64,000 nt of DNA from Candidatus Bathyarchaeota archaeon (GCA_963833575.1 CAWHXY010000008.1:1-64000), one strand, 5' to 3'. Shown: positions 5,591 to 29,095, counted from the stretch's first letter. Numbers and translations are program-made. The notes: generated from the sequence alone by a model not told the origin.

Positions 5591-7903
5591 TCAATTCTTG
5601 TTATTGTGTTTTCTTGCAAAAAGCGAAACTGGAATCATTATTATTGCAATCGCGGCGGCGACTATTCCATATGTTACTTCTTGATGTAGAATTTGTGACT
5701 GGGTTTGAAGTGGGTTTGGTGAGGTTGTGGGTTTTAGAGTTGATATGGGTGTTGGACTAGCCGTTGGAGATGGATCTGGCGAAGCTAACGGCGTAGGAGT
5801 ATGCACCGGCGTCGCTGTTGCTTTTGGCGTTGCAGTTACCGTTGATGGAATCACTGTTGGCGTTGGAATGGGCGTTGGTGTGGGAGTGGGTGTTGGAGTT
5901 GGAGTTGCTGCCGTGTTTACTGTTACCGATACCGCAGAAGAATTCACAGACTCTCCTGCGCTATCACTAATCTGAAGTAAGAAAGTCCAGTTACCAATAG
6001 CAGTAGAACTTGAAGTTACGAAGTCATAAGTAGATGAAGTAGCCCCGACCACAGAGGAATAAGAGTTAGCGCCAACTTTAGCGAACCACTGATACGTGAA
6101 AGGCGCAGTGCCTGTCGTTACTGCAGAAACAGACAGACTCAAGGTCTGGTCTTGACTAACCGTATTAGACGATGCTGTAGCAGAAGCAGCAAGAAGCTTA
6201 GAATTCACTGTTACCAGAGCTGCAGAAGACTGAGGAGAAACAGTACCTAAACTATCCGTAACTGCCACAGTAAGCGAGTAAGACCCAGCTGACCCAGGAG
6301 CATAATTAAAAGTTGCCCCAATTACACTGTTCTGAGCCACACCATCTACATACCATTGATAAGATGAGTAACTGCCTGAACCGCCAGAAGCAGTCGCAGT
6401 AAAAAGTTTCAATTGATCAGAGTTCATAGTCCAAGAACTAGGCGTTACAGAAACAGAAGGCACAGTGTTAACTGTGATGTCCGTCACTATGTTGGATTGA
6501 ACTACTCTGCCGTCTTCGTCGGTCACACTCGCATAAACATTATAACTTCCAGCCTGAGTCGGAGTAAACGTCCAAGTTGAACCAGTCGCGTCTTGAACTT
6601 GGCCGCCGTTAAGATACCATTGATAAGAGTAAGGCGATTCGCCGCCTGCAACAGCTGAAGTAAACGTTTGCGGTTGACCAACATCCACGCTTGCACTCGT
6701 TGGACTAACGGTAACTGACATTTGGCTGCTTGACGTTTCGGTCTCAAACAGGCGAGTGTATTGGTACGCGTAGAGAGCGCCTAACCCAACATACCAAACA
6801 TCGGTTTTGCCAGACATATACTGCAGATGCTCGTAGCCTACTCCGCCCACTGACCAATCAATCTTACCTATGTGGCAATATTCTAGATAGAAACCGCCGG
6901 CAGGGCCATTATATACCGAGTCAAACCACTTGTTCATTGTAGCTAATGGATAACTAGTACTATTATTACCATCCAAGTCAAAAGGATCAGGTTGCCTGTT
7001 AAATATCCCATATGTGGTATTCCACTGTTCAATTGGGATTGGCACGCCCCAAGGCCCACTTGATGTACGACTGATAAGATAATCATATTTAGCGAGGGTT
7101 TGCTGAACCATGTCATTGGATTGTCCTGAAGGCTCAATCCAACACCAAAGGTACTGTTGATTTCCCTTAACATAAAGAGGGTTCAATGTCAAGTTTCCAA
7201 GTATGTCAGATTTTGAACCGCCGATTTCCGAATTATAATTTGAGTAGGGAACAGCTGGATGAGTACGTGAATGAGATGCAACCTCAAAATACCCTTGGTT
7301 TACGGCATTTTGCAAGTTTACCCAGTTACTTATCTGACCCGTTATGACTCCGCCGGTCCACCAAATCTTTGCATCCGCAAAAGCCTTAGCAATACTTGTA
7401 AAATTGTTACCTGTACCCCATGGCGCTGGGGCTCCTAAATCGTCTACAGTTACACAAACTGTGATTCTGCGATTATCATAATACTGTGCAGTACCCTGGT
7501 AATGGGTGGTTATGCTGTTCCCAGAAGAATCTGTGAAATAAATGTAGATGTTATCGCTGTATGACGAAAAAGCTATGGACACGTACGCCACGTGATTGGT
7601 GTAATCAAATCTTACGGCTTCGATGCCGTTGAAGAAGTCGCTGCTTGTTTTCTCTGCCATTTGAACCCAGTTCTCGCTTGTTGTGAACCTTCGATAAGTA
7701 TCCAGATTAGACGCGCTGCTGGGAATAGTAAATTCGTATGTTACAGGGTAAGTTAACCCATAAGTGTTATGAAGTGTCGGATCGATCGAGAACGTATAAA
7801 CTACTGAGCCGGCAGCTTTAACGGAAAAAGCCTGAAAAGGCATCGCTAAAGTCACAGCGGCCAAAACCACGAATAAAGCTACAGCAGTTCTTTTGATTTT
7901 CAT
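5591..7903 (-). CDS. Membrane-anchored polysaccharide deacetylase-like protein with PKD/Ig repeats, Pro/Thr linker and C-terminal TM helix
   Basis: First ~480 aa highly similar to the 26..4576 protein; TVDD and SHSRTH motifs; TPTPTP linker; hydrophobic tail followed by basic residues. Confidence 0.85.
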   Translation of the reverse strand: MKIKRTAVALFVVLAAVTLAMPFQAFSVKAAGSVVYTFSIDPTLHNTYGLTYPVTYEFTIPSSASNLDTYRRFTTSENWVQMAEKTSSDFFNGIEAVRFDYTNHVAYVSIAFSSYSDNIYIYFTDSSGNSITTHYQGTAQYYDNRRITVCVTVDDLGAPAPWGTGNNFTSIAKAFADAKIWWTGGVITGQISNWVNLQNAVNQGYFEVASHSRTHPAVPYSNYNSEIGGSKSDILGNLTLNPLYVKGNQQYLWCWIEPSGQSNDMVQQTLAKYDYLISRTSSGPWGVPIPIEQWNTTYGIFNRQPDPFDLDGNNSTSYPLATMNKWFDSVYNGPAGGFYLEYCHIGKIDWSVGGVGYEHLQYMSGKTDVWYVGLGALYAYQYTRLFETETSSSQMSVTVSPTSASVDVGQPQTFTSAVAGGESPYSYQWYLNGGQVQDATGSTWTFTPTQAGSYNVYASVTDEDGRVVQSNIVTDITVNTVPSVSVTPSSWTMNSDQLKLFTATASGGSGSYSSYQWYVDGVAQNSVIGATFNYAPGSAGSYSLTVAVTDSLGTVSPQSSAALVTVNSKLLAASATASSNTVSQDQTLSLSVSAVTTGTAPFTYQWFAKVGANSYSSVVGATSSTYDFVTSSSTAIGNWTFLLQISDSAGESVNSSAVSVTVNTAATPTPTPTPTPTPIPTPTVIPSTVTATPKATATPVHTPTPLASPDPSPTASPTPISTLKPTTSPNPLQTQSQILHQEVTYGIVAAAIAIIMIPVSLFARKHNNKN

Positions 7904-14307: not shown

Positions 14308-15492
14308 ATGAATATCGATCAGAAAAAGATTGCAACCATTCACGACTTTAATTTAGACTTCGATTTCATGTCCAGTCAATTGTGGAGTCTCAAAGCAAAG
14401 TTTCCCTCAGGATTAATTATACCTATTCTTGGCAACGACATTAAAAGTCCAGGATTAAACAAAATTGTGGAAGAAATTAATCAGTGTGATTATCTGAGCA
14501 AGGTTTTCATTGCTCTTTCAGCAAAAGAACCAGAAGATTATGAGAAGGCAATGAATTTAAGTCGATCTTTTAAGGTTCCATGCGAAGTAATTTGGTGCAA
14601 CAAACCAGAAGTAGTTAGCGTTTTAGAAGAGCTTAGAAGAAAAGGTCTCGACGTCACACAATTGTCGGGAAAAGGAAAAGACGTTTGGATCGCAATGGGT
14701 ATAGCGTCCCTTGATCTTTTCGCCTTTGCCGTGCATGATGCTGACATTGTCTCTTATACAAAGATGTTACCCACCCAGATGCTCTACCCTATTATTGAAC
14801 CTAAACTGGATTTCTTTTTTTCTAAAGGTTATTATGCACGAATTAATTTTGATTCCAAAAAGTTGTATGGGCGGATACACAGATTATTCATAAATCCCCT
14901 GCTAGAAGTTCTGCAGGAAAGACTACGCTACTCAAGGTTCCTTACATATTTGCAATCCTTCAGTTATCCGCTTGCGGGCGAAATGGCTCTTTACAGCGAC
15001 TTAGCTACACATCTTAGAGTGCCCAGCGATTGGGGGCTTGAACTAGGATTGCTCTCCGAAGTTTACAGGAATTCCTCTTTCGGGCGTATCTGTCAAATTG
15101 ATCTTGGATTTTACGATCATAGACACAAAAAGATTGAGGCCAATGAATTAATGAAAACGGCTGAAGATAGTTTCGTAACTTTGTTGAGGACTTTAACTGA
15201 AACCGAAAACGTAGATGTTTCTTACCCTTTCCTCACTAGCCTGCAAGTTGCTTATAGGCGATTGGCGCAGGATAAAATAAGGCAATATCACGCGGATGCT
15301 GTATGCAATAATCTAGCTTTTGATAGGCATGAAGAAGAAGCTAATGTAGATTTACTGTCTTCAGTTATTATCACAGGCGGAAGCAAATACTTGGCAAATC
15401 CTATCAGAGCTCAACTGCCAGATTGGCTAAGAACCATGGCAGCCATGTCAAATATCAGAGAAAGACTAAGAGAACAAGCCATTGAAGCCTAA
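14308..15492 (+). CDS. gpgS: Glucosyl-3-phosphoglycerate synthase (GpgS family)
   Basis: GKGKDVW, HDADI, KGYYAR, YGRIHRLF, YPLAGE and DWGLE motifs; overlaps the downstream phosphatase. Confidence 0.8.
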   Translation: MNIDQKKIATIHDFNLDFDFMSSQLWSLKAKFPSGLIIPILGNDIKSPGLNKIVEEINQCDYLSKVFIALSAKEPEDYEKAMNLSRSFKVPCEVIWCNKPEVVSVLEELRRKGLDVTQLSGKGKDVWIAMGIASLDLFAFAVHDADIVSYTKMLPTQMLYPIIEPKLDFFFSKGYYARINFDSKKLYGRIHRLFINPLLEVLQERLRYSRFLTYLQSFSYPLAGEMALYSDLATHLRVPSDWGLELGLLSEVYRNSSFGRICQIDLGFYDHRHKKIEANELMKTAEDSFVTLLRTLTETENVDVSYPFLTSLQVAYRRLAQDKIRQYHADAVCNNLAFDRHEEEANVDLLSSVIITGGSKYLANPIRAQLPDWLRTMAAMSNIRERLREQAIEA

Positions 15493-16243
15493 CCAATCAA
15501 AGATCATCGTTTTCGCAGACCTTGATGGCAGCCTCCTAAATGACAAATATGAATATGGCCAAACAGAACCAATTATTCATAAACTTCTTTCCTTAAATGT
15601 CTCCATAGTTTTTGCAAGCAGCAAAACAAGAGAAGAAATTGAGTTTTACAGAAAAAAAATGCAAATCAACGATCCATTCATAACTGAAAATGGATCCGCC
15701 ATTTTGATACCACAGAATTATTTTACGATAAAATACGAATTTACAAAACAGGAGCTTGGCTACAACACAATTGAACTCGGCACCCCTTACAAAGTTATCC
15801 GAGAAAAAATAGTTGCTGCCAAAAATCAAACAGCCGCTAATATTGTTGGGTTTGGAGACATGACTGTCGAAGAGATTGCAAAAGACAGCGGGCTGCCTAT
15901 GACTCTGGCAAGGCTTGCTAAGAAAAGGGAATACAGTGAACCATTCAAAATACTGGGTGGAAATGAGAAAGAGGCTTTGGATACAATCTGTAAGATGGGA
16001 CTTTGTTATACTCAGGGTGGCAGGTACTTGCACGCCCTCGGAAATTGCGACAAGGGAAAAGCAACATCAATTTTAAAAAACCTGTATTTACAACAGTTTA
16101 ACAGAATCTTTAGCTTTGGCGTTGGAGATAGCGCTAACGACTTGGATATGCTAAGAATTGTCGATAAACCCTTTTTTGTGGAGAAACCAGCTGCCAAAAA
16201 AACTATTTGGAAAGAAATCGAATTAATTGCCAAATCCCAATAG
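15482..16243 (+). CDS. gpgP: Glucosyl/mannosyl-3-phosphoglycerate phosphatase (HAD IIB)
   Basis: DLDGSLL, SSKT, ENGS, REYSEP, GGRY, DKG and GDSAND motifs. Confidence 0.85.
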   Translation: MKPNQSKIIVFADLDGSLLNDKYEYGQTEPIIHKLLSLNVSIVFASSKTREEIEFYRKKMQINDPFITENGSAILIPQNYFTIKYEFTKQELGYNTIELGTPYKVIREKIVAAKNQTAANIVGFGDMTVEEIAKDSGLPMTLARLAKKREYSEPFKILGGNEKEALDTICKMGLCYTQGGRYLHALGNCDKGKATSILKNLYLQQFNRIFSFGVGDSANDLDMLRIVDKPFFVEKPAAKKTIWKEIELIAKSQ

Positions 16244-16278
16244 AAAGAGGCATGGAAAAAATTAGGAGCCAAAAACTT

Positions 16279-16482
16279 TTAGTTGCATATGTCAAGGGCA
16301 GGTGTATTTTTTGGGGTTTTATGGCTTAATTTGTTATACCATCTGGAGCAATCGGACCATTTAATGCAATCCGCATGATTTAACAGTGGGTTTTTTTGAC
16401 CGCCTACATCTCTATCATTGCAGATACCATACGCGTTATGTTGTGAACAATTTTCGCATCCACGCTTAGTGATTCTATCCAT
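16279..16482 (-). CDS. Small Cys-rich hypothetical protein (67 aa)
   Basis: GGGAG upstream of MDRITKRGCENC; six Cys. Confidence 0.5.
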   Translation of the reverse strand: MDRITKRGCENCSQHNAYGICNDRDVGGQKNPLLNHADCIKWSDCSRWYNKLSHKTPKNTPALDICN

Positions 16483-16766
16483 TTTAACCAATCTCCCAAG
16501 GAATACGTAAGGGCTTCCTCTGATTTTTTGCTGGTCGAACGGAAATAAGCCTTCTGAACAAAGAATATAGACCAAAAAAATAAACTATATATTTTTGTTA
16601 GGTTTTAGGGTGGCACCATAGAAATTAGCGCTAACCGTACACTTATCCCATCGTGAAACCCTCTCCAAGCTTTAGAGGATTCAAGGCCTCTCTGTACCAC
16701 TATGTTAAAAAATATCGGCGTTTTAGCCTACTTATGTACCAGAATTAGGAAAAGGAGTTTGAAGGT

Positions 16767-16958
16767 TTGACAGGAGAATTTGAAAAACAAGTCAAAAAAC
16801 TATGCCTTGATCCTAAAGCCGAGAAAGAACTAATTGATGTGCTAAACAAAGCTACTAGTGAAGACCCATGTATGGCCTGCGAATCCAAAGGAGGCTGCGA
16901 GAATTTCAAATGGCACAAGAAATGGCTCAACAGCGACAGCTGTGACTGCTGCCCATAA
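16767..16958 (+). CDS. Small Cys-rich hypothetical protein (63 aa)
   Basis: GGAG upstream; PCMACESKGGC and CDCCP motifs. Confidence 0.65.
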   Translation: MTGEFEKQVKKLCLDPKAEKELIDVLNKATSEDPCMACESKGGCENFKWHKKWLNSDSCDCCP

Positions 16959-17185
16959 CCCCTATCTTGTTATTTTCCAAATTTTAATCGCAAACATTCT
17001 GAAGATCACTTGCTCCAAGCAAAATTTAAACTAAAACAAGACAACAGCTTGCAAAGGTTGATTACTAAAGAAGGAAATGTAGGTCATTTCTTCACTTAAC
17101 GTCATTTTCTAATGTTGGTTTTTTTGGTGCTATATGGATTTGAAATTCATAAACGATTTTAAAGACTCTTGGTTGTTTTGAAATA

Positions 17186-18034
17186 TTGCATGAAAATCGG
17201 CGACAAAGTGACTTTCTAATGAGTCAAGTTCTGTTATCCTTTGTAGTCCCAGCTTATAATGAAGAAGACTTTATCGAGGATACTCTGGGTACACTTGAAA
17301 CAGTTATAAAAGGCAAGAATTTGCCTTATGAAATTGTTGTGGTTAATGATGGAAGCCTTGATGGTACTTTGGCTAAAGTGGTTAGATATGCAAAAAATGA
17401 CGAGCATATCAAAGTGATCAGTTATGCTAATAACATCGGAAAGGGATATGCCGTAAAGACTGGGTTCGTACAAGCTAGCGGGGATATAGTTGTTTTTGCA
17501 GATAGTGACATGGAGATTGATTTAGGTACTATCTCAAAATATCTCGAGGCTTTGGAAGAAGGGGACATTGTTATTGCTTCTAAGAGGCATTCAGCTTCAC
17601 AAGTTGAAACACCTTTATCTCGTAAGATTCTCAGTCTAAGTTTTAATGCCTTAGTTCGACTTCTAACCGGCGTTCCTCTTAAGGATACTCAGTCTGGGCT
17701 TAAAGCTATGAGAAAGAGTGCGTTCGTCGATATTTTTCCCAGATTAGCGGTTAAACGATATGCTTTTGATGTTGAGCTGCTGGCCGTAGCTAACCTCTAT
17801 GGCTTGAAAGTTGTAGAGATGCCTGTAAACTTAAGGTTAGACGCTTCGTTCAAGCCAAAGGCCATATGGCACATGTTTCTTGATTTGCTTGGCATAGCAT
17901 ATAGACTTAGAGTAATTCATTGGTATCACCGCCTACTTCCAGAGAAAAACAGTTTTCAAAACATGGTTTCATTTGTTCTTCGTGAAAAGCAAGAAAAAAA
18001 TGTGTGTTCTGGATTCAAGCGGCGTCTGTTCTAA
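17186..18034 (+). CDS. GT2 glycosyltransferase, dolichyl-phosphate sugar synthase-like
   Basis: VVPAYNEE, VNDGSLDGT, GKGYAV, DSD, DTQSGLK, FDVELL; start may be ATG 17219. Confidence 0.9.
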   Translation: MHENRRQSDFLMSQVLLSFVVPAYNEEDFIEDTLGTLETVIKGKNLPYEIVVVNDGSLDGTLAKVVRYAKNDEHIKVISYANNIGKGYAVKTGFVQASGDIVVFADSDMEIDLGTISKYLEALEEGDIVIASKRHSASQVETPLSRKILSLSFNALVRLLTGVPLKDTQSGLKAMRKSAFVDIFPRLAVKRYAFDVELLAVANLYGLKVVEMPVNLRLDASFKPKAIWHMFLDLLGIAYRLRVIHWYHRLLPEKNSFQNMVSFVLREKQEKNVCSGFKRRLF

Positions 18035-18319
18035 TAAAGAAATGGTGTGTGAGGGCTTTCGCCACTAGAGGAGCGTTTAATGCGTTCCACTGTTCGTTTT
18101 GCCGAAGGATTTGAGTTCGACCCTGCATAGTTTAATACTAAACACCTTGACTAGCGCGCGTTTGATCAGACTCTCAAGGAATACCTCATGGAACTCCTCT
18201 AATATTTTTACTGATTCAGCAGAATCTCAAATTAGTAAAATGTTAACAAGCAAGAGAACGAAAGTCTTAAATCAAACTTGAGCTGCACCAATATAAAAAT
18301 GAAAGGTTAAGGAATACAT

Positions 18320-19519
18320 ATGAAAGTCAAAGTTTGGAAGATCCTAACTCTATTATTGATTGCGGTATTTGCGTTGACAACAATCAAAGCAGTATATGCA
18401 ACTGGAACACTACAACCGTCTTCAACTATCTCTGGAGTTGGCGGTGGGTACGCAGTTTATGATTCCGGCAAAGGCGAGATATTCGCGCAGCAATCCGGTG
18501 GAATAGCTGTAGTTTCGGACAGCGACAACAGTATTGTCACCACAATAAACCCTGGAGCGGAAAACGGTTATGGTCACGAATTAGTGTATGACTCCGGCAT
18601 GGGCGAGATCTTTGAATCTTCAGGCGGCCAATATGATACAGTGCCTCCAATCGTTACAATCATTTCGGACAGCAACAACTCCGTTCTTGGAAATGCAAAT
18701 TTAGAAACCTCTCTATATGGTCTCACGCTTCCTCTTGGGATGGCTTACGATTCCAGCAAAGGAGAAATCTTCATCTGCGATTCGGGATATGACGCGACTA
18801 CGGGCTATGCCTATAACGGAGGAGTCTTAGTCGTATCGGACACCAACAACACCGCTATCACAAAAATATATATTCCAGACGCTGAAGAAGCGGTTTATGA
18901 CTCGAGCAAAGGTGAAATCTTCGTGGCCTCTAGCTCCGGAAACGTCTCAGTCATATCGGACAGCACGAACGCCGTTCTCGCAACCGTTACAGTGGGGAAC
19001 TACCCCTACGGCATGGCTTACGATTCAGCTAAGGGAGAAGTGTTTGTGTTCAACGAAGACACTGGCTCTGTTTCGGTCATATCAGATAGTTCAAACTCGG
19101 TTGTGGCAACAATCACAGGGATAGCGGCACAAAGCGTTACACCAATTTCAATAGCGTACGACCCAGCCAACGGTGAGATATTCGCAAGCAACGTAACTAT
19201 ATCAGACAGCACAAACACAGTGGTCGCAGGAATTCCGGCTTACTCATACCCAGACAACCAGGGAAAAGTCGCACAAAATTTCGGAGATGTTGCTTATGAC
19301 TCAGGCAAGGGTGAAATGTTTGCGAGTGGACTTATCCTCGGGATGGGTGTGTTTTCGGATTCCTCCAGCCCGTCGACCTCCTCAACCGCATCTGCTACCT
19401 CCACTCCAAAAGTGCCAGAGTTCAGCAGCGCAGCACTCATTTCAGTAGCCGCAGCCATAGTAGCTGTAACCTTATGCACACTTGCATTGACAGAGAAGAA
19501 GAAAAGCCTCCTAAAATAA
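18320..19519 (+). CDS. Second YVTN/YncE-type beta-propeller surface protein with PEF-CTERM-like signal
   Basis: AYDSxKGEIF repeats; VPEFSSAAL + TM + KKK; paralogue of 8323..9474. Confidence 0.88.
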   Translation: MKVKVWKILTLLLIAVFALTTIKAVYATGTLQPSSTISGVGGGYAVYDSGKGEIFAQQSGGIAVVSDSDNSIVTTINPGAENGYGHELVYDSGMGEIFESSGGQYDTVPPIVTIISDSNNSVLGNANLETSLYGLTLPLGMAYDSSKGEIFICDSGYDATTGYAYNGGVLVVSDTNNTAITKIYIPDAEEAVYDSSKGEIFVASSSGNVSVISDSTNAVLATVTVGNYPYGMAYDSAKGEVFVFNEDTGSVSVISDSSNSVVATITGIAAQSVTPISIAYDPANGEIFASNVTISDSTNTVVAGIPAYSYPDNQGKVAQNFGDVAYDSGKGEMFASGLILGMGVFSDSSSPSTSSTASATSTPKVPEFSSAALISVAAAIVAVTLCTLALTEKKKSLLK

Positions 19520-20124
19520 AATAGATGAAACTGCATAATACAAAACCTGAAATCTTTCCCTTCTTTTCTTACATTAACGAATTTTGGGACAAGGCAACCC
19601 GCTCATGGAGAAAGCAAACGACAAAAAAAAGTTTGGAAAGAAATCGAATCAATTGTTCAAGTGCTATGGATGCGATCACACAGCAGAATAGACGCAACCT
19701 TTCGCACAATAACTTCACAAAACCAAATCGACAAGTCATAAAATACAAAATCTTAAATCCATAAACCGGACCAACAGGTGTTTTCAACAAAGTTGAACTA
19801 ATGGCAATTCGGAAGAATCTGCCATTGAAAAGCAATATTTGGATTTTTGGAGTGGCTAGCGCGCGGCTAAGGTGTAAGTTTTGTGCTCACTATCTGTTTG
19901 CCGAAAGATTTGAGCTCGATCTTGCATAGTTTAATACTAAATACCTTTAGACCATAGAACAAGCTTTCCACCTGTAGGCTTATTCATAATACTTCTTGAT
20001 TAAGATCTAATTCAACCAACCCGAAGTTTTACAACTGAGCAACAATTTCTTCAAAATTCCCATAGTTCTTCCGAGAAGAGTAATTAACAGGGAACGCGTC
20101 ACAAAGGGATTGGAGAAAACGTTT

Positions 20125-20430
20125 ATGTCTCAGGACAGTTCTTTTCCCGAATCGCCACAATCACCAATAAATCAATCGTCATACTCGTTGCGTCAAAAGC
20201 GAAATACATCATTATACTTCAACCTCGGTATCTTATGTGCCTTCATTAGTTTGTTAGTGGTTCCAGAAATTTTTGGTTCAGCTGCTATCATCTTGGGAGC
20301 TTACACTTGGCGGATGGAACGAGATGAAAATAGAAACCGTGGGCTTGTATTGATAATAGTTGGAATTGTGGCGATGCTTGTGGGAATTTATTACACTTCT
20401 TATTTTGCATTATACGACATTCTTCCGTAA
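20125..20430 (+). CDS. Small membrane protein (DUF4190-like)
   Basis: Hydrophobic helices with FGSAAIILG and a charged loop; ATG 20125. Confidence 0.65.
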   Translation: MSQDSSFPESPQSPINQSSYSLRQKRNTSLYFNLGILCAFISLLVVPEIFGSAAIILGAYTWRMERDENRNRGLVLIIVGIVAMLVGIYYTSYFALYDILP

Positions 20431-20598
20431 GAGTTTTGGACAAAGTCTCAGCGTCATCACTTTTTTGTGAAGACGTTGGTCGTAATTACAATTTAGTCAA
20501 AAAAGTATTATACAGGTTATGTCTTCATAAATTGGAGTAAAAATATACTTTTCAAAAAAGGTTTTGAAGGAAAAAACTGATTAAGTTTGTGAAATTGG

Positions 20599-20994
20599 TT
20601 AAATTCCAGGTATGTTTGCGATGAAGCCAATGCAATATGGAATTAGCCAAATTATCCAAACAATAAGACTGAGCCTATGAAAGTTTCTTAACCTTTGTTC
20701 ATTGCCACTTATCAGTGAAACTGTTGCCCAGATTGCATGGAAGAGCATCAATACGATTGCTAAGACTCCTGTTAATGCATGGATGTTTAGGAAATTTCCA
20801 CTATTCGTGGTTGTCACTAAGGTTGTCATCAACGTTGTTCCTGTAGTATCAAAGACAAAACCTGCCCAGAAAAATGCAAGGTGTTTTTGTTTGAGAATTT
20901 TGGCAAGCCTTTCGCTCCAAACGCCTATGGAGTAGAAAACAAGAGCCAGGGTTATTGCGATTGCTGAAATCACTAATATGTTTGCTTCCATCAA
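20599..20994 (-). CDS. TIGR03987/HsmA-like four-TM membrane protein
   Basis: ALVFYSIGVWSE, FDTTGT, HALTG, MLFHAIWA and FHRLS motifs. Confidence 0.8.
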   Translation of the reverse strand: MMEANILVISAIAITLALVFYSIGVWSERLAKILKQKHLAFFWAGFVFDTTGTTLMTTLVTTTNSGNFLNIHALTGVLAIVLMLFHAIWATVSLISGNEQRLRNFHRLSLIVWIIWLIPYCIGFIANIPGI

Positions 20995-21010
20995 ATCACC
21001 ACCTTTTATT

Positions 21011-21108
21011 ATAATGTTGACTGTTAGTCAGTTATAGTACCTTTAGTTATTTATGCGTTTAGTCAGTTAATATACGTTTAGTCAGTTATTATGCCATTAA
21101 TCAGCAAA
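21011..21108. promoter_or_regulatory. Putative TetR operator region: palindrome TGACT-GTT-AGTCA plus 19-bp tandem half-site repeats
   Basis: TTAGTCAGTTA occurs three times in the divergent intergenic region. Confidence 0.65.
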
Positions 21109-21155
21109 CCTAATGCCTTAAATAAAACTTACAATAAATCCAAACAAGAGAAACA

Positions 21156-21755
21156 ATGCCCAAAGTAATTCCAGAATATAGAGAAGCAGCTAAAGAAAGA
21201 ATTATAAAAGCTGCCTTTGAAATCTTCACAAAAAAAGGCTACCATGAATCAACGATGGATGATATAGCCAAAGAAATAGGCGTAAGCAAAGGAGCCCTCT
21301 ATCAATACTTCAAAAACAAAAGAGAACTGCTCAACGAAATCGTCCTTTCCTACCACGCAATGTTTCGCGAGGTTCTAAGAACCTCGTTTGAAAAACAGGA
21401 TAACTCTGCAATTGCAGAAGGGGGATCAGAGGCGTTACTTAAAAAATACCGCTTACACCATGAGATGTTCTTTGAAATCATCGCAATTGCAAGTCATGAC
21501 GAAGAAATTAAGAAATCATTAAAAAACGAGTATGAAAAGGACATCAAACTCATCGAAGAATACTTTAAAAAAGAAAAGGAAAATGGAAAACTAGCATTGA
21601 AAATAGAAGCGAATACGTTAGCACAACTGTATATTGCGGTGTATGTTGGTATGGCTATGAAAGTAATTATGGGTGACGATAGTGTTGAAATACATCGGGT
21701 TTGGTCAAGAGCAATAGCTGCTATGATGTCATCATCTGCAGATAAAACACTCTAA
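21156..21755 (+). CDS. TetR/AcrR family transcriptional regulator
   Basis: FTKKGYHESTMDDIAKEIGVSKGALYQYFKNK helix-turn-helix. Confidence 0.93.
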   Translation: MPKVIPEYREAAKERIIKAAFEIFTKKGYHESTMDDIAKEIGVSKGALYQYFKNKRELLNEIVLSYHAMFREVLRTSFEKQDNSAIAEGGSEALLKKYRLHHEMFFEIIAIASHDEEIKKSLKNEYEKDIKLIEEYFKKEKENGKLALKIEANTLAQLYIAVYVGMAMKVIMGDDSVEIHRVWSRAIAAMMSSSADKTL

Positions 21756-22041
21756 TCATCTACTATGTGGACGGCAAAAAATAAACGCTGTATGGTTATT
21801 GTTGATACATCTTAGGCAGTTTTGAACGTTTTTTAGTTGTTGCACCCTGGACACCTTATATTGATTTCTTGTAAGTTGACAACCCAAATTAGATAGATTC
21901 ATATAAAAAAATAATATTGGGCGGCGTCTCCATTGGAGGAAACGTTCAATGCATTCCAATGTTTACTTAACCGGAGGATTTGAGTTCAACCCCAATTAAA
22001 AGACAAATGAACACGGTTTTTGCGTTATGTGCCCTTATGCT

Positions 22042-22380
22042 CTACTGAGATTCAAGCAAAATATCCTTTCCTTCAACCTTCACAGCATAAACTTGTGCAT
22101 CTTTGATTTTAGGGTGCATCAAAGGAATCTTTGGACCGGAAACAACTTTGCCATTTGTAACGTCAAACTTTGCCTTATGTTTGGGACAAGTCACTGTATT
22201 TCCGTCAAGTGTTCCTTTTGAAAGGTCCCCGTGCATGTGCGTGCAACTATTTTCGATGGCATAATAGACATTGTTCACGTTGGCTATCATAACTTCTTTT
22301 TCTGCAAGCTTTACAACCTTCGTTTGCCCCAGAGATATTTCTTGGGTTTCAGCAACTTTAACAAGAGTCAAACTTTCCAC
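22042..22380 (-). CDS. Rieske-type [2Fe-2S] ferredoxin
   Basis: CTH...CPKH ligand motifs, FDVTNG. Confidence 0.9.
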   Translation of the reverse strand: MESLTLVKVAETQEISLGQTKVVKLAEKEVMIANVNNVYYAIENSCTHMHGDLSKGTLDGNTVTCPKHKAKFDVTNGKVVSGPKIPLMHPKIKDAQVYAVKVEGKDILLESQ

Positions 22381-22809
22381 CTCCGCTTCATTCTCTTAAT
22401 TCTTGCTCTTCTATAAGAACACTAATTACCTGCCCTATGTTTTAACGAGAATGCTTAACTGAATAGAAATAAATCTAAGTCTAAAAGAAAGGCTTGATAA
22501 ACTTTGATCTTCACTGCTTTAGGGGTTCAACGCGTTCCCATGGTTGCTTTGCCAGAGGGTTTGAGTTGAACCCAAAATATGTGCCGTATTGATGGACTTC
22601 TAATTGACAGCTGACCTTTTTCCAAGCAAGCATGTGCCTCCTCTTCCTGCGTATGTAATCACTTGCTAACAGATAGCACAGTATCGGGTAATTATCAAAA
22701 GACTTAACTTGAAAAACAAGTCTTAGACACTATTTAGATTTAGGAATTTGGAAAGATAGGGGACTTAGATTGACTAACTCTATGCTGGATTATCTTATTT
22801 TGAACAGTA

Positions 22810-23076
22810 GTGACGAGGGACGACCTTTTGACAGATGTTCAAAATGCGGTCACAGGTACGATGAACACAAAAAGAATGGAAGTTGCCAGATTAAGAGTTG
22901 CTATTGCAATGCGTTTAAAGCATGAGTTTTTGGATGCTATAGAAAAAGAAAAGGATAGACCTCTTGAATTTGAATACTTCGAAGAAATAGCCAATATGGT
23001 AGAATCATTCGAAACTGTAAAATCTATGATTGAGGTTCATATCTCGGGGGACATGAAACATGCAAATACAAGGTAA
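22810..23076 (+). CDS. Hypothetical protein (88 aa)
   Basis: Helical, charged ORF overlapping the next gene start. Confidence 0.5.
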   Translation: MTRDDLLTDVQNAVTGTMNTKRMEVARLRVAIAMRLKHEFLDAIEKEKDRPLEFEYFEEIANMVESFETVKSMIEVHISGDMKHANTR

Positions 23077-23464
23077 GGGTAAACCTTTTAGCATAGCTTT
23101 CATTTTGTCCGCAGTCTCTGGTATATTAATAGTTTCTCAGGGAGCTTTAAGGTTCATACGTAACCAGTGGGGTCTTGAATTGGGAATCGGCGAATTTCGC
23201 AGGGCAATGGTTCACGGAAGCGGCTTCAGAATAATAAGCATCGTTACCATATTATTAGGAATAATTGTTCTTTTTGGCGCACTTCTCATGAGGAATGGAA
23301 GAACAAAAGATGGGGGAACACTCGTGATAGCTTTTTCTGCATTATCGATTATGAGTGGTGGAGGCTATTTGGCAGGTTTGATTCTCGGAGTGGTTGGAGG
23401 AGCTTTGGCAATCAGTGAACAAATACCAAGCAACTCCACCAAAGAACCTCTTCCCAATAACTAA
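23060..23464 (+). CDS. Small membrane protein (DUF6114-like)
   Basis: About four TM helices ending GGGYLAGLILGVVGGALAI. Confidence 0.75.
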   Translation: MQIQGKGKPFSIAFILSAVSGILIVSQGALRFIRNQWGLELGIGEFRRAMVHGSGFRIISIVTILLGIIVLFGALLMRNGRTKDGGTLVIAFSALSIMSGGGYLAGLILGVVGGALAISEQIPSNSTKEPLPNN

Positions 23465-23634
23465 AGGGTTAAGCTACAATACTGAAATCAAGGAATTAGA
23501 AGCTTTATTGTTTTAGCCAAGGTTCATTAATACCCCCCCTGTCTGATTTGTCAGAGGATTTTAGTTCGACCCTCCAATGCAAGTCTTCAAACCCTTAAAT
23601 ACACAAACTAAAGCCGTACTAATTGCGGATTCAA

Positions 23635-24099
23635 ATGAAGACAATTATTCTGTACTCTTCTAAGAGCGGCAACACAAAAAAAATCGCCGATTCGATGGCT
23701 TCCCAAATAGGCAGTGACGCAATAAGAATAACCTCAGAAAGTACTCCTTCAACCATGGATTTGGATGGGTACGATTTGGTTCTTGTTGGAACAGGTCTCT
23801 TCGCTGGAACCCCCAACGAAGACCTCATGCGATATCTTAGGAACCTAAATTTGAAAACCACTAAAATGTTTGCTCTGTTTATAACTTGGGGTGGAGCACC
23901 AAGAACTGATAAGTTGGCCTTGACCAGACTTAGGAGGCTTCTGGAAAGCAAGGGGCAGAAAGTGCTAGAAGACCATTTTGCGTGTTATGGCGGATGGAAA
24001 GGTATTCTGATGAAGAGAGGTCATCCTAAAGCTGAAGAAATCAAAGCCGCTGGCGAATGGGCAAAAAAGCTAGTTGATAATTTGGAAAAATACCAATGA
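23635..24099 (+). CDS. Flavodoxin family protein
   Basis: IILYSSKSGNTKKIA FMN loop, YDLVLVGT, ALFITWG; TTAAATA TATA upstream. Confidence 0.88.
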   Translation: MKTIILYSSKSGNTKKIADSMASQIGSDAIRITSESTPSTMDLDGYDLVLVGTGLFAGTPNEDLMRYLRNLNLKTTKMFALFITWGGAPRTDKLALTRLRRLLESKGQKVLEDHFACYGGWKGILMKRGHPKAEEIKAAGEWAKKLVDNLEKYQ

Positions 24100-24287
24100 G
24101 AATAATTAACGCACACAAAAGAAATGATGTTTTATCCACCGGCTAATTTGGAACTCTTATGTTCCACTGCCTAATTTGCCGGAGATTTTGAGTTCAACCA
24201 TGAATAATTGTAAGTGTTCTGCGAGAGGAACACCATGTTCCATGAATAGAACTAAAAGCACTTATGATATTGACTAATTCGATAAGA

Positions 24288-24872
24288 ATGAATAAGAAAA
24301 TAATAGCCTCATTTTTGTTAGTAACTATACTTTTTGTAAGTGCAATTGCTGGAGCAATACTTTATTATGAAAGCTTAGTCAATCAAAAAAATTCCGCCAT
24401 ATCTTCCCTGAACAATCAAATCGATAATCTCAATATGGAAATAGCAAATTTAACCAGCCAAATTTCAAATCTTACTAACCAAACACGTTTAACGTCGGCA
24501 AATCTTGTAACTGCATTAGGCATAACTGAAATAAGAAATACTTCAAGCATATCTAGATCATATAATCGACTCTACATTGATGGTTCAGTAACAAATCAGG
24601 GAGCAGAAACAGCTTATGGCGCAGGATTACATGTTGTGGCTTATTCTCAGGATGGTACATTAGAAATAAACATGACTGTTCCTCTAACTTGGGGAGAGTA
24701 TGCGGCAGACAGTGCAACTGAATCTTATGTTTCAACTTTTGATGGTGTGACTGGTTCATTGCAGCTTGGAAGTTTAGTTGGTGGGCAATCTACGAATGTG
24801 GATTTAGATATTTATCACGAAGGCACTGTTACTAATTGGACTGTAACTCCAGTATGGACAAATACGCCCTAA
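24288..24872 (+). CDS. Membrane-anchored extracellular protein with short coiled coil and beta-sandwich domain
   Basis: MNKKII + TM helix, heptad LxxQIxNL repeats, IDGSVTNQG. Confidence 0.75.
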   Translation: MNKKIIASFLLVTILFVSAIAGAILYYESLVNQKNSAISSLNNQIDNLNMEIANLTSQISNLTNQTRLTSANLVTALGITEIRNTSSISRSYNRLYIDGSVTNQGAETAYGAGLHVVAYSQDGTLEINMTVPLTWGEYAADSATESYVSTFDGVTGSLQLGSLVGGQSTNVDLDIYHEGTVTNWTVTPVWTNTP

Positions 24873-25331
24873 CATTAATTTCAAGCTTATTATTAATCAA
24901 ATTAATCCTCATTGTAAACTCAAACTTACGGAAAAATGGGAAATGCAGGTGATTTTACCATTGAATCGAGATTTAAACAATACCGGGTTATGGTGTGGAG
25001 TTATAAGATTTGGCAAATCAACTAACTGCCGCCTTTGCACGAACCTAAGGCGAATGTTCTTCTTTTAAAGATTCAATATTTTAGTAACCGCTATGGACTT
25101 TGTTGATATAGAATTTCGGCCAAGATTTCTTTGCGTCTCTCTTTGCGGTTCTTCTTTTTGGTTCTTCATGCCTAATGAGAAATAATTTAGCGTTAAAATA
25201 AAAACTTTATTGATTTAGGCTTATGAATAAGACTAATTAACCAAGCGTTAACCTCACAAAAAAGGGGAAATGTTGGTGATGTCTTCATTGGATGGAGATT
25301 CAAGTTTCCTTCAGCACCCTAAGCCGTTGTA

Positions 25332-25793
25332 TTACCTCAAAAAGAGCTTCATTATGTGTTGCTCGTGCCTTATTTCTCCTGTAAATTCAAAACCGAACTT
25401 GCGATAGAATGGCTCTGCGCAGCCGTCCATTTTGACGAGAGACAATTTGACGGCTTTGGCTTTGGGGTTTTTCTTTATTATTGTTATTACTTTTTCTAGC
25501 GCCTTGGCGCCGTAGCCTTTGCCCTGATATTTTGCGTCTATCATGAATCGCCAGAGGTAATAATATCCCCTGGTTGGAATTTGATAAAGCATTATGAAGC
25601 CTACAGGTGTTTCGCCTGTGTATATTGCTCGGAACCAAGCGTTCTTGTAAAAAGAGGCTTCTGCGAGTGAAATGGCGTTTGCTGTGACCAGCATGCGCTG
25701 ATTTTCGCCCACATTTAAATCACATATTGTCCTGACAGTCTTTGGGGTAATTATACGTAGAACGATTTTTTCTTTCTGCTGGTCATTCATCAT
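25332..25793 (-). CDS. GNAT family N-acetyltransferase (polyamine acetyltransferase-like)
   Basis: NAISLAEA, RFMIDAKYQGKGYG acetyl-CoA motif, FYRKFGF. Confidence 0.9.
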   Translation of the reverse strand: MMNDQQKEKIVLRIITPKTVRTICDLNVGENQRMLVTANAISLAEASFYKNAWFRAIYTGETPVGFIMLYQIPTRGYYYLWRFMIDAKYQGKGYGAKALEKVITIIKKNPKAKAVKLSLVKMDGCAEPFYRKFGFEFTGEIRHEQHIMKLFLR

Positions 25794-26001
25794 TTTCCTA
25801 TTCAGCTCTGTTATCTTACGCTTTTATGTTAGTAGCTTTTTGAAATTTAACATTTGGCAACCGTATCAGATAATTTGGAGTTCAAAACAACATTAATCCA
25901 AAATTGCAGAGGTTTATCAACATCTCCATTGACTAGAGGGTTTGAATCTAACCCCCACTTTTATAAGTAAAAGCGTAAAAGAACTAAATTGGGTGAGATA
26001 G

Positions 26002-26154
26002 ATGGTAATCGCTGAAAACTGTCCCTGTCCTAAAAACAAGTGTATTAGACATGGCAAATGTGAAGAGTGCTCACAACATCATGCGGAAAAAGGCAAACTA
26101 CCCTTCTGCAAAAGACCAAAGAATTCACGGTTTGGATTTTTGAAAAAGAAATAG
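26002..26154 (+). CDS. Unlisted 50-aa Cys/His-rich metal-binding protein (DUF6485-like)
   Basis: MVIAENCPCPKNKCIRHGKCEECSQHHAEKGKLPFCKRPKNSRFGFLKKK; GGTGA upstream and TTTATAAG TATA near 25959; below the ORF-track length cutoff. Confidence 0.8.
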   Translation: MVIAENCPCPKNKCIRHGKCEECSQHHAEKGKLPFCKRPKNSRFGFLKKK

Positions 26155-26177
26155 TTTTTCTTGGTCATCTTCGGTTT

Positions 26178-26423
26178 CTACTCCGACAAGTAAGTTGGTT
26201 CTAACGGGGCGAGAATTTGCTCGGAAATGAAATAAACGCCATTATCTAATAACATATTTAGCTCATGTTTCTTAACAAAATCTGTAATGAGCGAAAGTGA
26301 ATTATTGTTGACGATGTGTTCCGTAATTCTTAAGACAAGCCCGTCTTTCAAAGTCTCAAGAATTTTTACGTCTATATTGAAGTTTTTCCTTATTTCTCTT
26401 TTTAAAACCATTGCATCAAACAT
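26178..26423 (-). CDS. Hypothetical protein (81 aa)
   Basis: ATG ORF with GGTGA upstream and protein-like composition. Confidence 0.6.
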   Translation of the reverse strand: MFDAMVLKREIRKNFNIDVKILETLKDGLVLRITEHIVNNNSLSLITDFVKKHELNMLLDNGVYFISEQILAPLEPTYLSE

Positions 26424-26937
26424 TTTCAGTGTTTCATCACCTACCCAAATCTAGATGGTAAAAGTAGCGCAAACCTAGACAATTATAGATATGTTTAGTT
26501 TAGCTATTTTTATAAGCTGTAAAGTTGCTTAAGTCTGTTTTGCCTAGTAAGTGGTTGCTTAGTGCTTTAACTTAACATAAACTTCGAGAGTTTTCACCAT
26601 GATAATCACTATAGCTACAACTGTTGCTCCTAATGTAACGATTTCTTCACACAGGGAACATCTATCAAAAAAAACGAATGGTGAGCTTTTAATGGGGGTT
26701 CTTGCTTTGGATCATTATTTTTCTGCTACTCTTTATGAGAAAACGAAGAATAGTCTTTTCTCAAACGAGGTAATAGCTTTAACCACTTGAAATTTGCTAA
26801 AATCAGAACAGCCCAATAAGAAAAGGAGAGATGCGGGTGAAGTCCTCCACTGGAGTGTGGGTTCAATCCGATTCCCCACCTAAAAACGCCAGAGGGTTTG
26901 AGTTCAACCCTGAATATTAGTTTAGTCTGGATATTAC

Positions 26938-27366
26938 TCATGGAATAACATGTTGAGTATATTCTCTGGTGCATTTCCCGTCAATGCTTGCTGACGTGAC
27001 GTTTCCATAAATTAAGAAATTGATTAAGTACTTGTCAGACACTGGCACAGTAAGATTTGCCTGCCAAATACCTGTTCCATTAAGAACTAATCTTTCCCAA
27101 GTGGCAGCCAAAGAGGGGTTCACGGTTTGAATGTCAAGTAGCAATACTGCTTGACCAGTCCTAACGGTTGTTGTAATATTAAGTGAATCTCCCTTAGTCA
27201 AATGCCAAGAACCCACCGTCCCATTGGATGAACCGTTAGCTTGGAGGACATAATGACCATCATAGAGTGTTTCCTGAGCTTTCCAGCTTGGATTAAGAAA
27301 TACCGTAACTCCCAAAGCAACAAGGATTGCAATGCAAATGATACCAAGCACGAACTTGCGTCTCAT
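26938..27366 (-). CDS. Membrane-anchored or secreted beta-rich hypothetical protein
   Basis: MRRK + hydrophobic helix, several N-x-S/T sequons. Confidence 0.7.
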   Translation of the reverse strand: MRRKFVLGIICIAILVALGVTVFLNPSWKAQETLYDGHYVLQANGSSNGTVGSWHLTKGDSLNITTTVRTGQAVLLLDIQTVNPSLAATWERLVLNGTGIWQANLTVPVSDKYLINFLIYGNVTSASIDGKCTREYTQHVIP

Positions 27367-27698
27367 TTAGCCGCTTCCAAAATTGATTATACTGTATTTG
27401 AACATAAAAATCTTGTCAATACTTGAAACTACGCGTCTTTCAAAAAACAGGGTTTTGCAGGAGATATCTCTAATGGAGGAACCCTTCAAACCCCACCATC
27501 AACACTTTTATCAATTTTCAAAAAATTATAAATGCGATAATTTAAACTAAAACCAAACGAATACCTAGACAAACCCCAATCAAAAAATATATTGGAGTCT
27601 GCTTTCAAATATTGAGCAGCTTTCAAAACAACCAAACATTTTGGATCTCCTGCCTTTTCTTAATGCGATGTACCATAATAAAATGCCATTGAACGACT

Positions 27699-27775
27699 AA
27701 ACTAGCTTAAAAGAGCTTGAAATAGCTTAAAAGGGCTTAAACTAGATTAAAAAAGATTAAACTAGATTAAAAAAC
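27699..27775. repeat. Non-coding 10-bp-period tandem repeat (about 7.5 units)
   Basis: AAACTAGCTT AAAAGAGCTT GAAATAGCTT AAAAGGGCTT AAACTAGATT AAAAAAGATT AAACTAGATT AAAAAAC. Confidence 0.8.
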
Positions 27776-27832
27776 ACTCAACCTGCAAACAAATCAAGAC
27801 CTAAATCAAAAAAGCAACCCAAAACAAAGAAA

Positions 27833-27852
27833 AAAAATTGTGCGCAATTTTT
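27833..27852 (-). terminator. Hairpin/T tract after the ggs-like gene
   Basis: AAAAATTG-TGCG-CAATTTTT palindrome just past the stop codon. Confidence 0.5.
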
Positions 27853-27859
27853 CGCAGCG

Positions 27860-29095
27860 CTAGTATTTGTCGATTAGGTAGGGTTTGAGTTTTGTGAAGG
27901 TTTTTGCTTCTTCTACTACTCGTGCTTCTGATTCTTCTTCTGATTCTGTCCAGGTTTCTTTTAGATAAGCAGCAATTCTACCAATCCAAAGCACTCTTAA
28001 GGCATCTATCAATTTGTCTCTGCCATACGCGGGGTTTTTGTGAAATTCAGCAATAAATGAGTAGACTGTTTTTGCCCAGATTTCAGAGGGAAAAGTGATG
28101 CAGGATGTTTCTATCTGCTTAAGTTCATCAAATTTACTTAGAATTTCAGGCTCCAAAAACGATTTGTAGATGTCGCTGTATGTGTTGTAGTTGTTTTTGT
28201 AGGCTTCAATTGTGGCAGGTAGGGAGACTTGGATTTGTTCGGGCGCTCCGTTTCCTTGTATGTCTCCATATGACTCGGTTGCTGTGATGCCGCTTATTGC
28301 TTTCCAAACGGACTCGTAACGTTCGATCGAGGTAAACATGATGTTTATGACCTGCCGAAACATAGAGGCAAGTTGACTGGAAGGATCTTTAGCATCATGA
28401 TTTTTTACTCCTAAAAGAGCCTGCTTCACTTTATATCCCCTCGCCAACGCCGTATAAGTCTCAAAAATGTCAATGCCGAAGCGGCAAACATCCGGAAGCT
28501 CCCACATAGAAGAATCCAACAGCTCCTCAACCAGCTCAATCGACAACCCGAAGTCCCCACCTATAGGCTGCCGAATATCTTTTCCAAATAGACTCGCCGT
28601 AACAGGATAACACAAGAAATTAGTAATCGTTCCATCATATTTTCGGCGATGATAACAAGGCGCCACAAAACCTGTACCCGCCAAAGTCGGCGAAATCAAA
28701 AGCCGAATCCACTCTGGAGTTATGCTACGCAAATCTGAATCCACCAACGCCACACTTCGCACTTTCAAATAGCTTGCAGCCTCAAAAATAGCCCTAACAG
28801 CCCTTCCCTTACCAGATATCCCCATGTAAATGGCAGGAATCAACTTCACCTCAGAAGGCAAATAAACCTGCTTAACAGAAGTCAACGTTTCATCCTTTGA
28901 ACACCCATCTGAAACAAAAACTACCGACCTCAAATTAGGAAAATAAGTGTCTAAACCCTTAGTCACTTGAGAAATAACATAACTTGCAGTAAGCACATTA
29001 TTGAAAGAGGGAATACCCACCAAGACATCTGCTTTCTCTATATTATGCAGATACACCCGGGCATCCAACGATAAAGCCGAATCATCTTTATTCAT
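27860..29095 (-). CDS. ggs: Single-step glucosylglycerate synthase-like glycosyltransferase (Ggs/Mgs family)
   Basis: LVGIPSFNN, SDG, GKG, VDSDLRSITPEW, KYDGTITN, IRQPIGGDFG and FGIDI motifs. Confidence 0.72.
   Translation of the reverse strand: MNKDDSALSLDARVYLHNIEKADVLVGIPSFNNVLTASYVISQVTKGLDTYFPNLRSVVFVSDGCSKDETLTSVKQVYLPSEVKLIPAIYMGISGKGRAVRAIFEAASYLKVRSVALVDSDLRSITPEWIRLLISPTLAGTGFVAPCYHRRKYDGTITNFLCYPVTASLFGKDIRQPIGGDFGLSIELVEELLDSSMWELPDVCRFGIDIFETYTALARGYKVKQALLGVKNHDAKDPSSQLASMFRQVINIMFTSIERYESVWKAISGITATESYGDIQGNGAPEQIQVSLPATIEAYKNNYNTYSDIYKSFLEPEILSKFDELKQIETSCITFPSEIWAKTVYSFIAEFHKNPAYGRDKLIDALRVLWIGRIAAYLKETWTESEEESEARVVEEAKTFTKLKPYLIDKY

Follow-up and report, generated by a model that had tools for sequence, protein, structure and literature searches.

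The DNA considered here is the first 64 kb of contig C8 (CAWHXY010000008.1:1-64000) in a Candidatus Bathyarchaeota archaeon genome of 2.75 Mb and 8 contigs (GCA_963833575.1), and this whole stretch of 64,000 nucleotides is called the window below. Between two convergent conserved genes it holds an 11.6-kb island in which co-oriented copies of a ~90-nt intergenic repeat lie among short unrelated genes. An earlier note, made from the sequence alone, had described the region as an integron-like cassette array built on an unrecognised repeat. Relatives differ by whole cassettes joined at the core of this repeat, and the core resembles the 3′ half of tRNA-Cys. We lean slightly towards the view that integrase-less cassettes have been stacked by site-specific recombination at a portable, tRNA-Cys-derived attachment (att) site by a tyrosine integrase acting in trans. 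The island and its flanks are as follows.

15482..16243, plus strand: left flank, conserved HAD-type hydrolase gene (Pfam Hydrolase_3)
16244..27859, no strand assigned: inserted island (cassette array) between the two convergent conserved genes, absent from six relatives
27860..29095, minus strand: right flank, conserved 411-aa gene with weak glycosyltransferase (GT)-like matches

The two flanking genes are adjacent in 6 of 6 syntenic relatives (L043-L048/L049), with their stop codons 20-315 nt apart. Orthologues of the HAD gene at the six syntenic loci are 63-75% identical, and those of the 411-aa gene, which adjoin the HAD gene in the relatives, 73-86%. None of the island genes is present at the syntenic locus in the six relatives, and the 11.6-kb array is an insertion. 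Among public runs no RNA run was listed for the region. One DNA run, which holds 24% of the words, bridges the left junction (15861-16341) by low-depth short contigs; the same run shows no joints and is too thin to bear on excision.

Except where nhmmer is named, the window matches reported here were obtained with a sequence-only covariance model (CM) run over the whole 64 kb with filters off, and the repeat was also recovered by a direct-repeat search and by profile searches. Ten matches were found at E ≤ 0.13, all on the plus strand and all within 18040-26912, giving 10 co-oriented sites across 8.9 kb. Six of them span the full element (E 1.5e-11 to 2.9e-21), and the other four are halves, two right and two left; the rest of the window gave scattered noise-level matches only (E 1.8-5, either strand).

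18040..18125, plus strand: full element (left arm, tRNA-Cys-like core, right arm); CM 58.7 bits, E 2.8e-17
19887..19947, plus strand: right half (19887-19920) with ~25 nt of common downstream flank; CM E 0.021, model positions 52-86
21905..21994, plus strand: full element; CM 65.5 bits, E 2e-19
22490..22575, plus strand: full element, the sole window copy with right end GTTGAAC; CM 57.4 bits
23486..23573, plus strand: full element, diverged; CM 40.3 bits, E 1.5e-11
24115..24202, plus strand: full element with diverged left half; CM 50 bits
24934..24975, plus strand: left half only; CM E 0.13, model positions 1-44, nhmmer E 0.044
25261..25303, plus strand: left half only; CM E 0.0018, model positions 1-45
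25912..25955, plus strand: right half only; CM E 0.081, model positions 40-89
26822..26912, plus strand: full element, top-scoring window copy; CM 71.4 bits, E 2.9e-21
27449..27488, plus strand: possible left half, weak; CM E 1.9, nhmmer E 0.0076

All eight copies that the earlier note had called clear were recovered, as six full elements and two right halves (19887-19920 and 25912-25955), and the repeat does lie where it was placed and on one strand (10/10 CM matches on plus, 18040-26912). Among its five left-half or decayed copies, those at 25261-25303 and 24934-24975 stand and that at 27449-27488 is weak, while those at 16653 and 17067 fall away, the corresponding matches at 16662 (nhmmer E 2.4) and 17072 (CM E 3.5) being indistinguishable from noise. 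The element is always intergenic, and as a rule no more than ~55 nt separate it from a stop codon to its left or right, as at 18040, where it begins a few nucleotides past the stop codon of the family 2 GT gene (GT2). Its orientation is independent of the direction of the adjoining gene. A reading of the repeat as a small open reading frame (ORF) on either strand was rejected, since indels of 1-2 nt between copies break the frames (by eye).

The cargo genes, identified from Pfam, include the following.

17186..18034, plus strand: family 2 glycosyltransferase (PF00535, E 4.9e-29)
18320..19519, plus strand: repeat (NHL-like) beta-propeller protein with signal and anchor (Pfam NHL; internal repeats)
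21156..21755, plus strand: TetR-family regulator (TetR_N, E 6.6e-20)
22042..22380, minus strand, opposite to the flanking elements: Rieske protein (Pfam Rieske, E 1.6e-18)
23623..24099, plus strand: flavodoxin-like protein (Flavodoxin_5)
25332..25793, minus strand, opposite to the elements: GNAT acetyltransferase (Acetyltransf_1)

The mixed gene content claimed earlier (GT2, NHL repeat, TetR, Rieske, flavodoxin and GNAT) is thus borne out by Pfam. Unlike the strand-uniform elements, the cargo genes run in either direction, and the cassettes measure 0.6-3.5 kb and carry unrelated genes.

Comparison of related arrays, of the kind suggested in the earlier note, showed that close relatives differ by whole cassettes exactly at the repeat, and the joints fall at the core, in the T-loop-like motif GTTCAA(A/T). 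Two genomes that are ~93% identical have, at L081 and L083, the same flanks and different segments of 0.87 and 2.86 kb, each with a direct repeat at its borders (GTTCAAA or GTTCAAAGC); in one of the two genomes, the site is split into a left half, foreign DNA and a right half. A third genome, at L082, carries one extra cassette of ~0.95 kb compared with its relative, consisting of a right half, a 229-aa ORF and a left half. The switch point there lies within ~15 nt ending at GTTCAA, and the cassette stands between two left-arm/core copies. Direct core repeats flanking an insert were thus found as GTTCAAA(GC) in L081/L083 and at the L082 cassette; for the whole window island, no core is visible at the empty site of the relatives. 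Within this genome, a 445-nt block common to two arrays (95% identical) ends at model position ~47. With joints at these positions, the upstream cassette takes the left half of a site and the downstream cassette the right half, and a circle of one cassette would carry one complete site. Two further pairs of copies match over the right half and what follows it: the right half at 19887 is 90% identical over 51 nt with 18098-18148, the left parts being dissimilar, and one copy of the C8 159k array is homologous to element 24115 over the right half and the 166 nt after it (window 24178-24368 vs C8:159277-159086, 86% identity).

In the ~90-nt element a degenerate tRNA-Cys 3′ half is framed by conserved left and right arms. 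The core is formed by the T-loop-like GGGTTCAAT followed by a CCCCA.C acceptor strand, and in alignment the middle of the element corresponds to the 3′ acceptor strand and T arm of tRNA-Cys. Among the 37 tRNAs of the genome, tRNA-Cys scored best against the core (mean 10.62, vs 7.46 ± 1.09 overall) and was the sole match at E < 0.05. The comparison indicates that the site is derived from tRNA-Cys, and the repeat held to be unrecognised has as its core a degenerate tRNA-Cys 3′ half, that is, a putative integrase attachment site. No tRNA was called by a tRNA scan in the window or in 11 array loci. The modest similarity of the window copies to tRNA-Cys is a gap closed by intermediates. The left arm continues at C5:108.6k into a 96%-identical 3′ fragment of tRNA-Cys (E 6e-4) and at L140:3441-3502 into a near-authentic tRNA-Cys end (E 1.6e-6 to 4e-10), and at G099:C31:488-546 a left-half match overlaps a 28/28 tRNA match. 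An att core made of the 3′ part of a tRNA gene is found here by way of tRNA-Cys, the window copies being degenerate.

Partial tRNA-Cys copies are common in the genus, with two or more matches in about half of the genomes (counted by hand). In four relatives, co-oriented arrays of partial tRNA-Cys copies, spaced by 0.5-2.5 kb, are anchored just downstream of the real gene:

L137: tRNA-Cys-anchored array, 4 partial copies
L138: tRNA-Cys-anchored array, 4 partial copies
L139: tRNA-Cys-anchored array
L140: tRNA-Cys-anchored array

The L139 array includes an element of the 90-nt type (E 6.9e-10). Cargo families and promoter-like modules are common to the arrays of this genome and the tRNA-Cys arrays of the relatives.

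The right arm (e.g., 26885-26912) looks like the 3′ end of tRNA-Leu read in reverse complement; tRNA-Leu(cag) was the best of the 37 tRNAs (9.3 vs 6.59 ± 0.98; nhmmer E 0.3-2), and the site may comprise two tail-to-tail tRNA-like pieces. In addition, the native 3′ end of the 411-aa gene (~27865-27895) repeats the best-conserved right-arm motif exactly over 12 nt, with an ATTTG.C box ahead of it, and the same is seen in L043-L048, which have no island; this match could be a secondary site or chance. A promoter-like module occurs 3′ of many elements and tRNA-Cys sites, with a palindrome AGTCAA-N6-TTGACT and a third half site, continuing into a TATA-like box and then a gene start; a second version has GTTCC-N6-GGAAC. 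It was seen at G000 C8:157.2k, C7:627.6k, C7:631.6k and C6:75.5k, at L137:2150-2230 and 7090-7150, and at 24203-24262 of the window.

Two observations concern the edges of the island. A second, unrelated repeat family occupies its right edge (27694-27850), opening with three tandem 20-nt units (27700-27759) and giving more than 80 blastn matches on all large contigs and on both strands. At 19606-19655, 3.4 kb inside the island, the 3′ end of the hydrolase gene (16179-16229) recurs over 51 nt with 82% identity, suggesting that an early insertion duplicated or replaced that gene end.

The distribution of the element was examined in 119 other genomes of the same Bathyarchaeia genus, counting a copy at E ≤ 1e-4, and in 24 genomes from other families of the same order. 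At least one copy was present in 50/119 genomes of the genus, and none in the 24 outgroup genomes. This genome has ~20 copies in total at E ≤ 0.001, in 5-6 clusters, each strand-uniform, plus singles; the further clusters from the genome scan are:

C8 77-80k, minus strand
C8 157-164k, minus strand
C7 627-632k, minus strand
C6 75-82k, plus strand
C4 14-19k, plus strand

Hence the earlier statement that the repeat is confined to this region holds within the 64-kb window and fails both genome-wide, with clusters on C8, C7, C6 and C4, and genus-wide. Neighbouring pairs (copies at most 5 kb apart, counted by hand from match tables) share their strand in 10/10 cases in this genome and 18/18 in the others. 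On one contig the orientation flips twice within 36 kb, and on G128:C2 it flips within 16 kb, so that strand does not track replication direction. The element is retained across species with proteins ~70-75% identical. Copies within this genome differ by 15-35%, and many are half sites. For the C8 156-165k array, the left flank is conserved in 5/5 relatives and synteny stops there, and no right flank was found. Viral contigs gave one partial right-half match (L141, E 5.9e-4), and a left-arm pattern search of them gave no match. At L080:4460-18330, in the array of another genome, five paralogous PAS histidine-kinase genes have their 3′ ends directly against elements that run antisense to them; in this genome, the C4 14.4k copy likewise adjoins a kinase gene.

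Such a distribution, patchy across the genus with ~20 copies per genome, always intergenic and usually ~55 nt or less from a stop codon, might suggest a non-autonomous transposon akin to miniature inverted-repeat transposable elements (MITEs) or repetitive extragenic palindromic (REP) elements that lands at gene 3′ ends, the arrays being tolerant, recently acquired DNA. Nevertheless, on reading the consensus, its ends lack complementarity and visible terminal inverted repeats, and there is no fold, although no search was aimed at target-site duplications. Moreover, 28/28 neighbouring pairs lie on the same strand with an orientation that does not follow replication direction, and left and right halves segregate with upstream and downstream DNA. 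The MITE/REP-like element that the earlier note kept in reserve therefore fits poorly, by its lack of terminal inverted repeats and the strict strand uniformity, and we regard it as improbable.

The position by stop codons also suits a functional RNA or transcription signal (3′ untranslated region element, terminator or small RNA) common to many genes, as do the left-end A-run, which is a T-run on the other strand, and matching changes in a possible closing helix in a few copies (by eye). Against this, searching the window with Rfam 15 at gathering score gave 0 matches, RNAalifold on 15 copies gave no consensus structure, and folding energy compared with dinucleotide shuffles gave no signal (mean z -0.48 and -0.11 on the two strands). 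In a test of own- against cross-partner duplexes with 50 copies from many genomes, none of seven helices was significant (best 152/2000 permutations, others about half). Together with an orientation independent of neighbouring gene direction, these results leave the possible RNA role little probability; the repeated noncoding RNA suggested earlier fits poorly, as neither fold nor covariation was found.

Resemblance to integrons is closer in outline. Integron arrays and clusters of attC sites lacking integron-integrases (CALINs), including archaeal ones, have co-oriented sites between small unrelated cassettes, and most arrays are without an adjoining integrase (Ghaly et al. 2022, PMC9668308); archaeal integrons have been published for Thermoproteota (PMC9668308). 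The window, too, has ten sites in one orientation, neighbours being less than 4 kb apart, with small unrelated cassettes between them and no integrase gene alongside, which is the CALIN arrangement, and one copy has complementary ends, GTTCAAC...GTTGAAC. If this were a true integron, attC sites would be recombined as folded single strands by an IntI-type integrase. Here, an attC scan for an R″ RYYYAAC/R′ GTTRRRY closing hairpin on both strands gave 2 candidates in the window, neither of them in the island, so that the lack of canonical attC ends noted earlier is confirmed. There is no attC hairpin, no pair of R″/R′ boxes and no hairpin energy signal, and the would-be R and L boxes are without covariation (977 and 939 of 2000). 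The crossover lies mid-site in the T-loop-like motif, not at the 3′ end; genes run in either direction, often with their own promoter-like modules. No IntI-type integrase was found, the best TIGR02249 score among the 5 tyrosine recombinases of the genome being 53.2 bits against a cut-off of 265. A true integron is thus extremely improbable, and the term integron-like applies to what the array does, not to family membership.

Taken together, these observations can be accommodated by the following mechanism. The ~90-nt repeat would be a portable integrase attachment site, and the mobile units would be DNA segments of one to three genes, each with one site and no recombinase gene. Insertion would proceed by conservative site-specific recombination into either an authentic tRNA-Cys gene or a copy of the site already in place, the strands crossing over in the T-loop-like GTTCAA(A/T). 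Each insertion would regenerate directly oriented sites, so that cassettes stack as strand-uniform arrays, and the reverse reaction, or recombination between adjoining sites, would remove or swap cassettes. The tyrosine integrase, with an N-terminal zinc ribbon, would be encoded elsewhere and supplied in trans. We infer an acting enzyme, circular intermediates and present-day activity. The sequential capture at a repeated site proposed by the earlier note is upheld as regards a stack of unrelated cassettes in a block absent from six relatives, and not as regards the confinement and novelty of the repeat.

Five tyrosine recombinases were found in the genome. One of them, a tyrosine integrase with an N-terminal zinc ribbon (C1:95-1276), is encoded at the start of contig C1, 193 nt away from tRNA-Cys. 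An intact member of the same family is found at C6:132726-133925. The family occurs in 107/120 genomes with up to 14 matches each, and in 6/30 loci tRNA-Cys has a homologue or a fragment no more than 1.5 kb away, this genome's C1 gene included; three of these six are fragments of 58-78 aa, and none lies in cassettes or in the window. At L033 an integrase homologue and a full element, the highest-scoring one found anywhere, are 325 nt apart. The likely enzyme would be this zinc-ribbon tyrosine integrase found by tRNA-Cys, acting in trans. Three other, mutually paralogous tyrosine recombinases of 480-496 aa (43-53% identical) are located at C2:199-1686, C4:3550-4992 and C7:18743-20233, and two of the three are less than 5 kb from a contig start. 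As to C1:95-1422, a frame change near 1235 is needed to read the conserved LLGH...Y box.

Several points weigh against recombination in trans at a tRNA-Cys-derived site. The C1 integrase is frameshifted just before the conserved catalytic tyrosine box, being either a pseudogene or an assembly error. No recombinase is found in the window, as the earlier note had said of the 64 kb, or adjoining any array of this genome, and only 2/30 integrase loci have an element within 1.5 kb, so that the linkage to the enzyme is weak. The window copies match tRNA-Cys only partly (~21/27, by eye), and the T-loop motif is common to many tRNAs. At the insertion locus the tRNA scan found no tRNA gene, and the empty site in relatives has no convincing element copy (best CM E 0.044, off site); the first insertion would have entered a spacer without a recognisable site. 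Finally, loss of a cassette between direct repeats could occur by ordinary homologous recombination, and the L080 array, whose neighbour genes are five paralogous histidine kinases, could have grown by tandem duplication.

Some of these points agree with the view that the arrays are dead scars of tandem integrase-bearing elements that were stripped of integrase and most other genes, with exchange by homologous recombination, deletion and duplication between att remnants and no site-specific activity today. The 15-35% divergence of copies within the genome, the many half sites, the integrase fragments that adjoin tRNA-Cys, the frameshifted local integrase and the one array with paralogous kinases are in its favour. 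On the other hand, three independent cassette differences are joined at the same 7-9 nt motif and not across the ~50-nt common arm, and a left half, foreign segment and right half in succession are expected of insertion into a full site, not of deletion. Units of 0.6-3.5 kb with unrelated genes, and an element kept across species with ~70-75% identical proteins, also speak against scars, and we consider them unlikely, if the most serious contender.

Cas1-driven (casposon-type) insertion at tRNA-like landing sites was also weighed. The genome has a single Cas1 gene (C6:324421-325395) with no CRISPR-like repeats within 15 kb, which would suit this explanation; the gene lies ~240 kb from the nearest array on its contig. 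Casposons make target duplications of 14-15 nt; the junction repeats here are 7-9 nt, and the cassettes have no terminal inverted repeats at their borders. This origin is accordingly very improbable for the arrays. The lone Cas1 gene may itself be a casposase.

Among described systems the closest is tycheposon-type accretion at tRNA genes. Prochlorococcus islands have tyrosine-recombinase elements that target tRNA genes, units flanked by partial tRNAs with later arrivals displacing earlier ones, and scattered partial tRNAs together with integrase fragments (bioRxiv 10.1101/2020.12.28.424599). The likeness to this account lies in tRNA-anchored stacking, partial tRNAs and integrase fragments. 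Here, in contrast, most units measure 0.6-3.5 kb, hold one to three genes and lack both an integrase and a replication module. The site includes two conserved arms of non-tRNA sequence, arrays (that of the window among them) also stand apart from tRNA genes, and the host is archaeal. What is new relative to tRNA-anchored accretion is the combination of integrase-less mini-cassettes, a three-part portable site and arrays away from tRNA. Cis-mobilizable elements of streptococcal integrative and conjugative elements are integrase-less, bounded by att sites and moved in trans. They share with the present arrays att-flanked cargo without a recombination module, accreted beside an integrase-bearing element, but they are single units at one bacterial site, whereas here arrays of about ten units occur at several loci. 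A T-loop class of tRNA integration sites, reportedly defined by Williams in 2002 (Nucleic Acids Research), is said to have its crossover in the 7-nt T loop with the T stem as symmetric arms. The present site is alike in its crossover within the T loop; the 3′ T-stem strand is decayed in the window copies, so that the site is no longer strictly a tRNA piece.

Integrons are the textbook means of stockpiling single genes. The literature searched describes no comparable arrays in Bathyarchaeia, although that search was limited and is no proof of absence. It is conceivable, if somewhat short of probable, that the genus runs a double-stranded, tRNA-T-loop-based counterpart of the integron, in which integrase-less single-gene cassettes bearing a three-part portable site are captured, stacked, swapped and seeded beyond tRNA-Cys by a zinc-ribbon integrase encoded elsewhere. 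If true, prokaryotes would have a second cassette-capture system of independent evolutionary origin, with a defined 7-nt crossover motif and a candidate enzyme family, and screens based on attC hairpins would overlook a class of cassette platforms. It would also explain how uncultured sediment and soil archaea build many short variable gene arrays.

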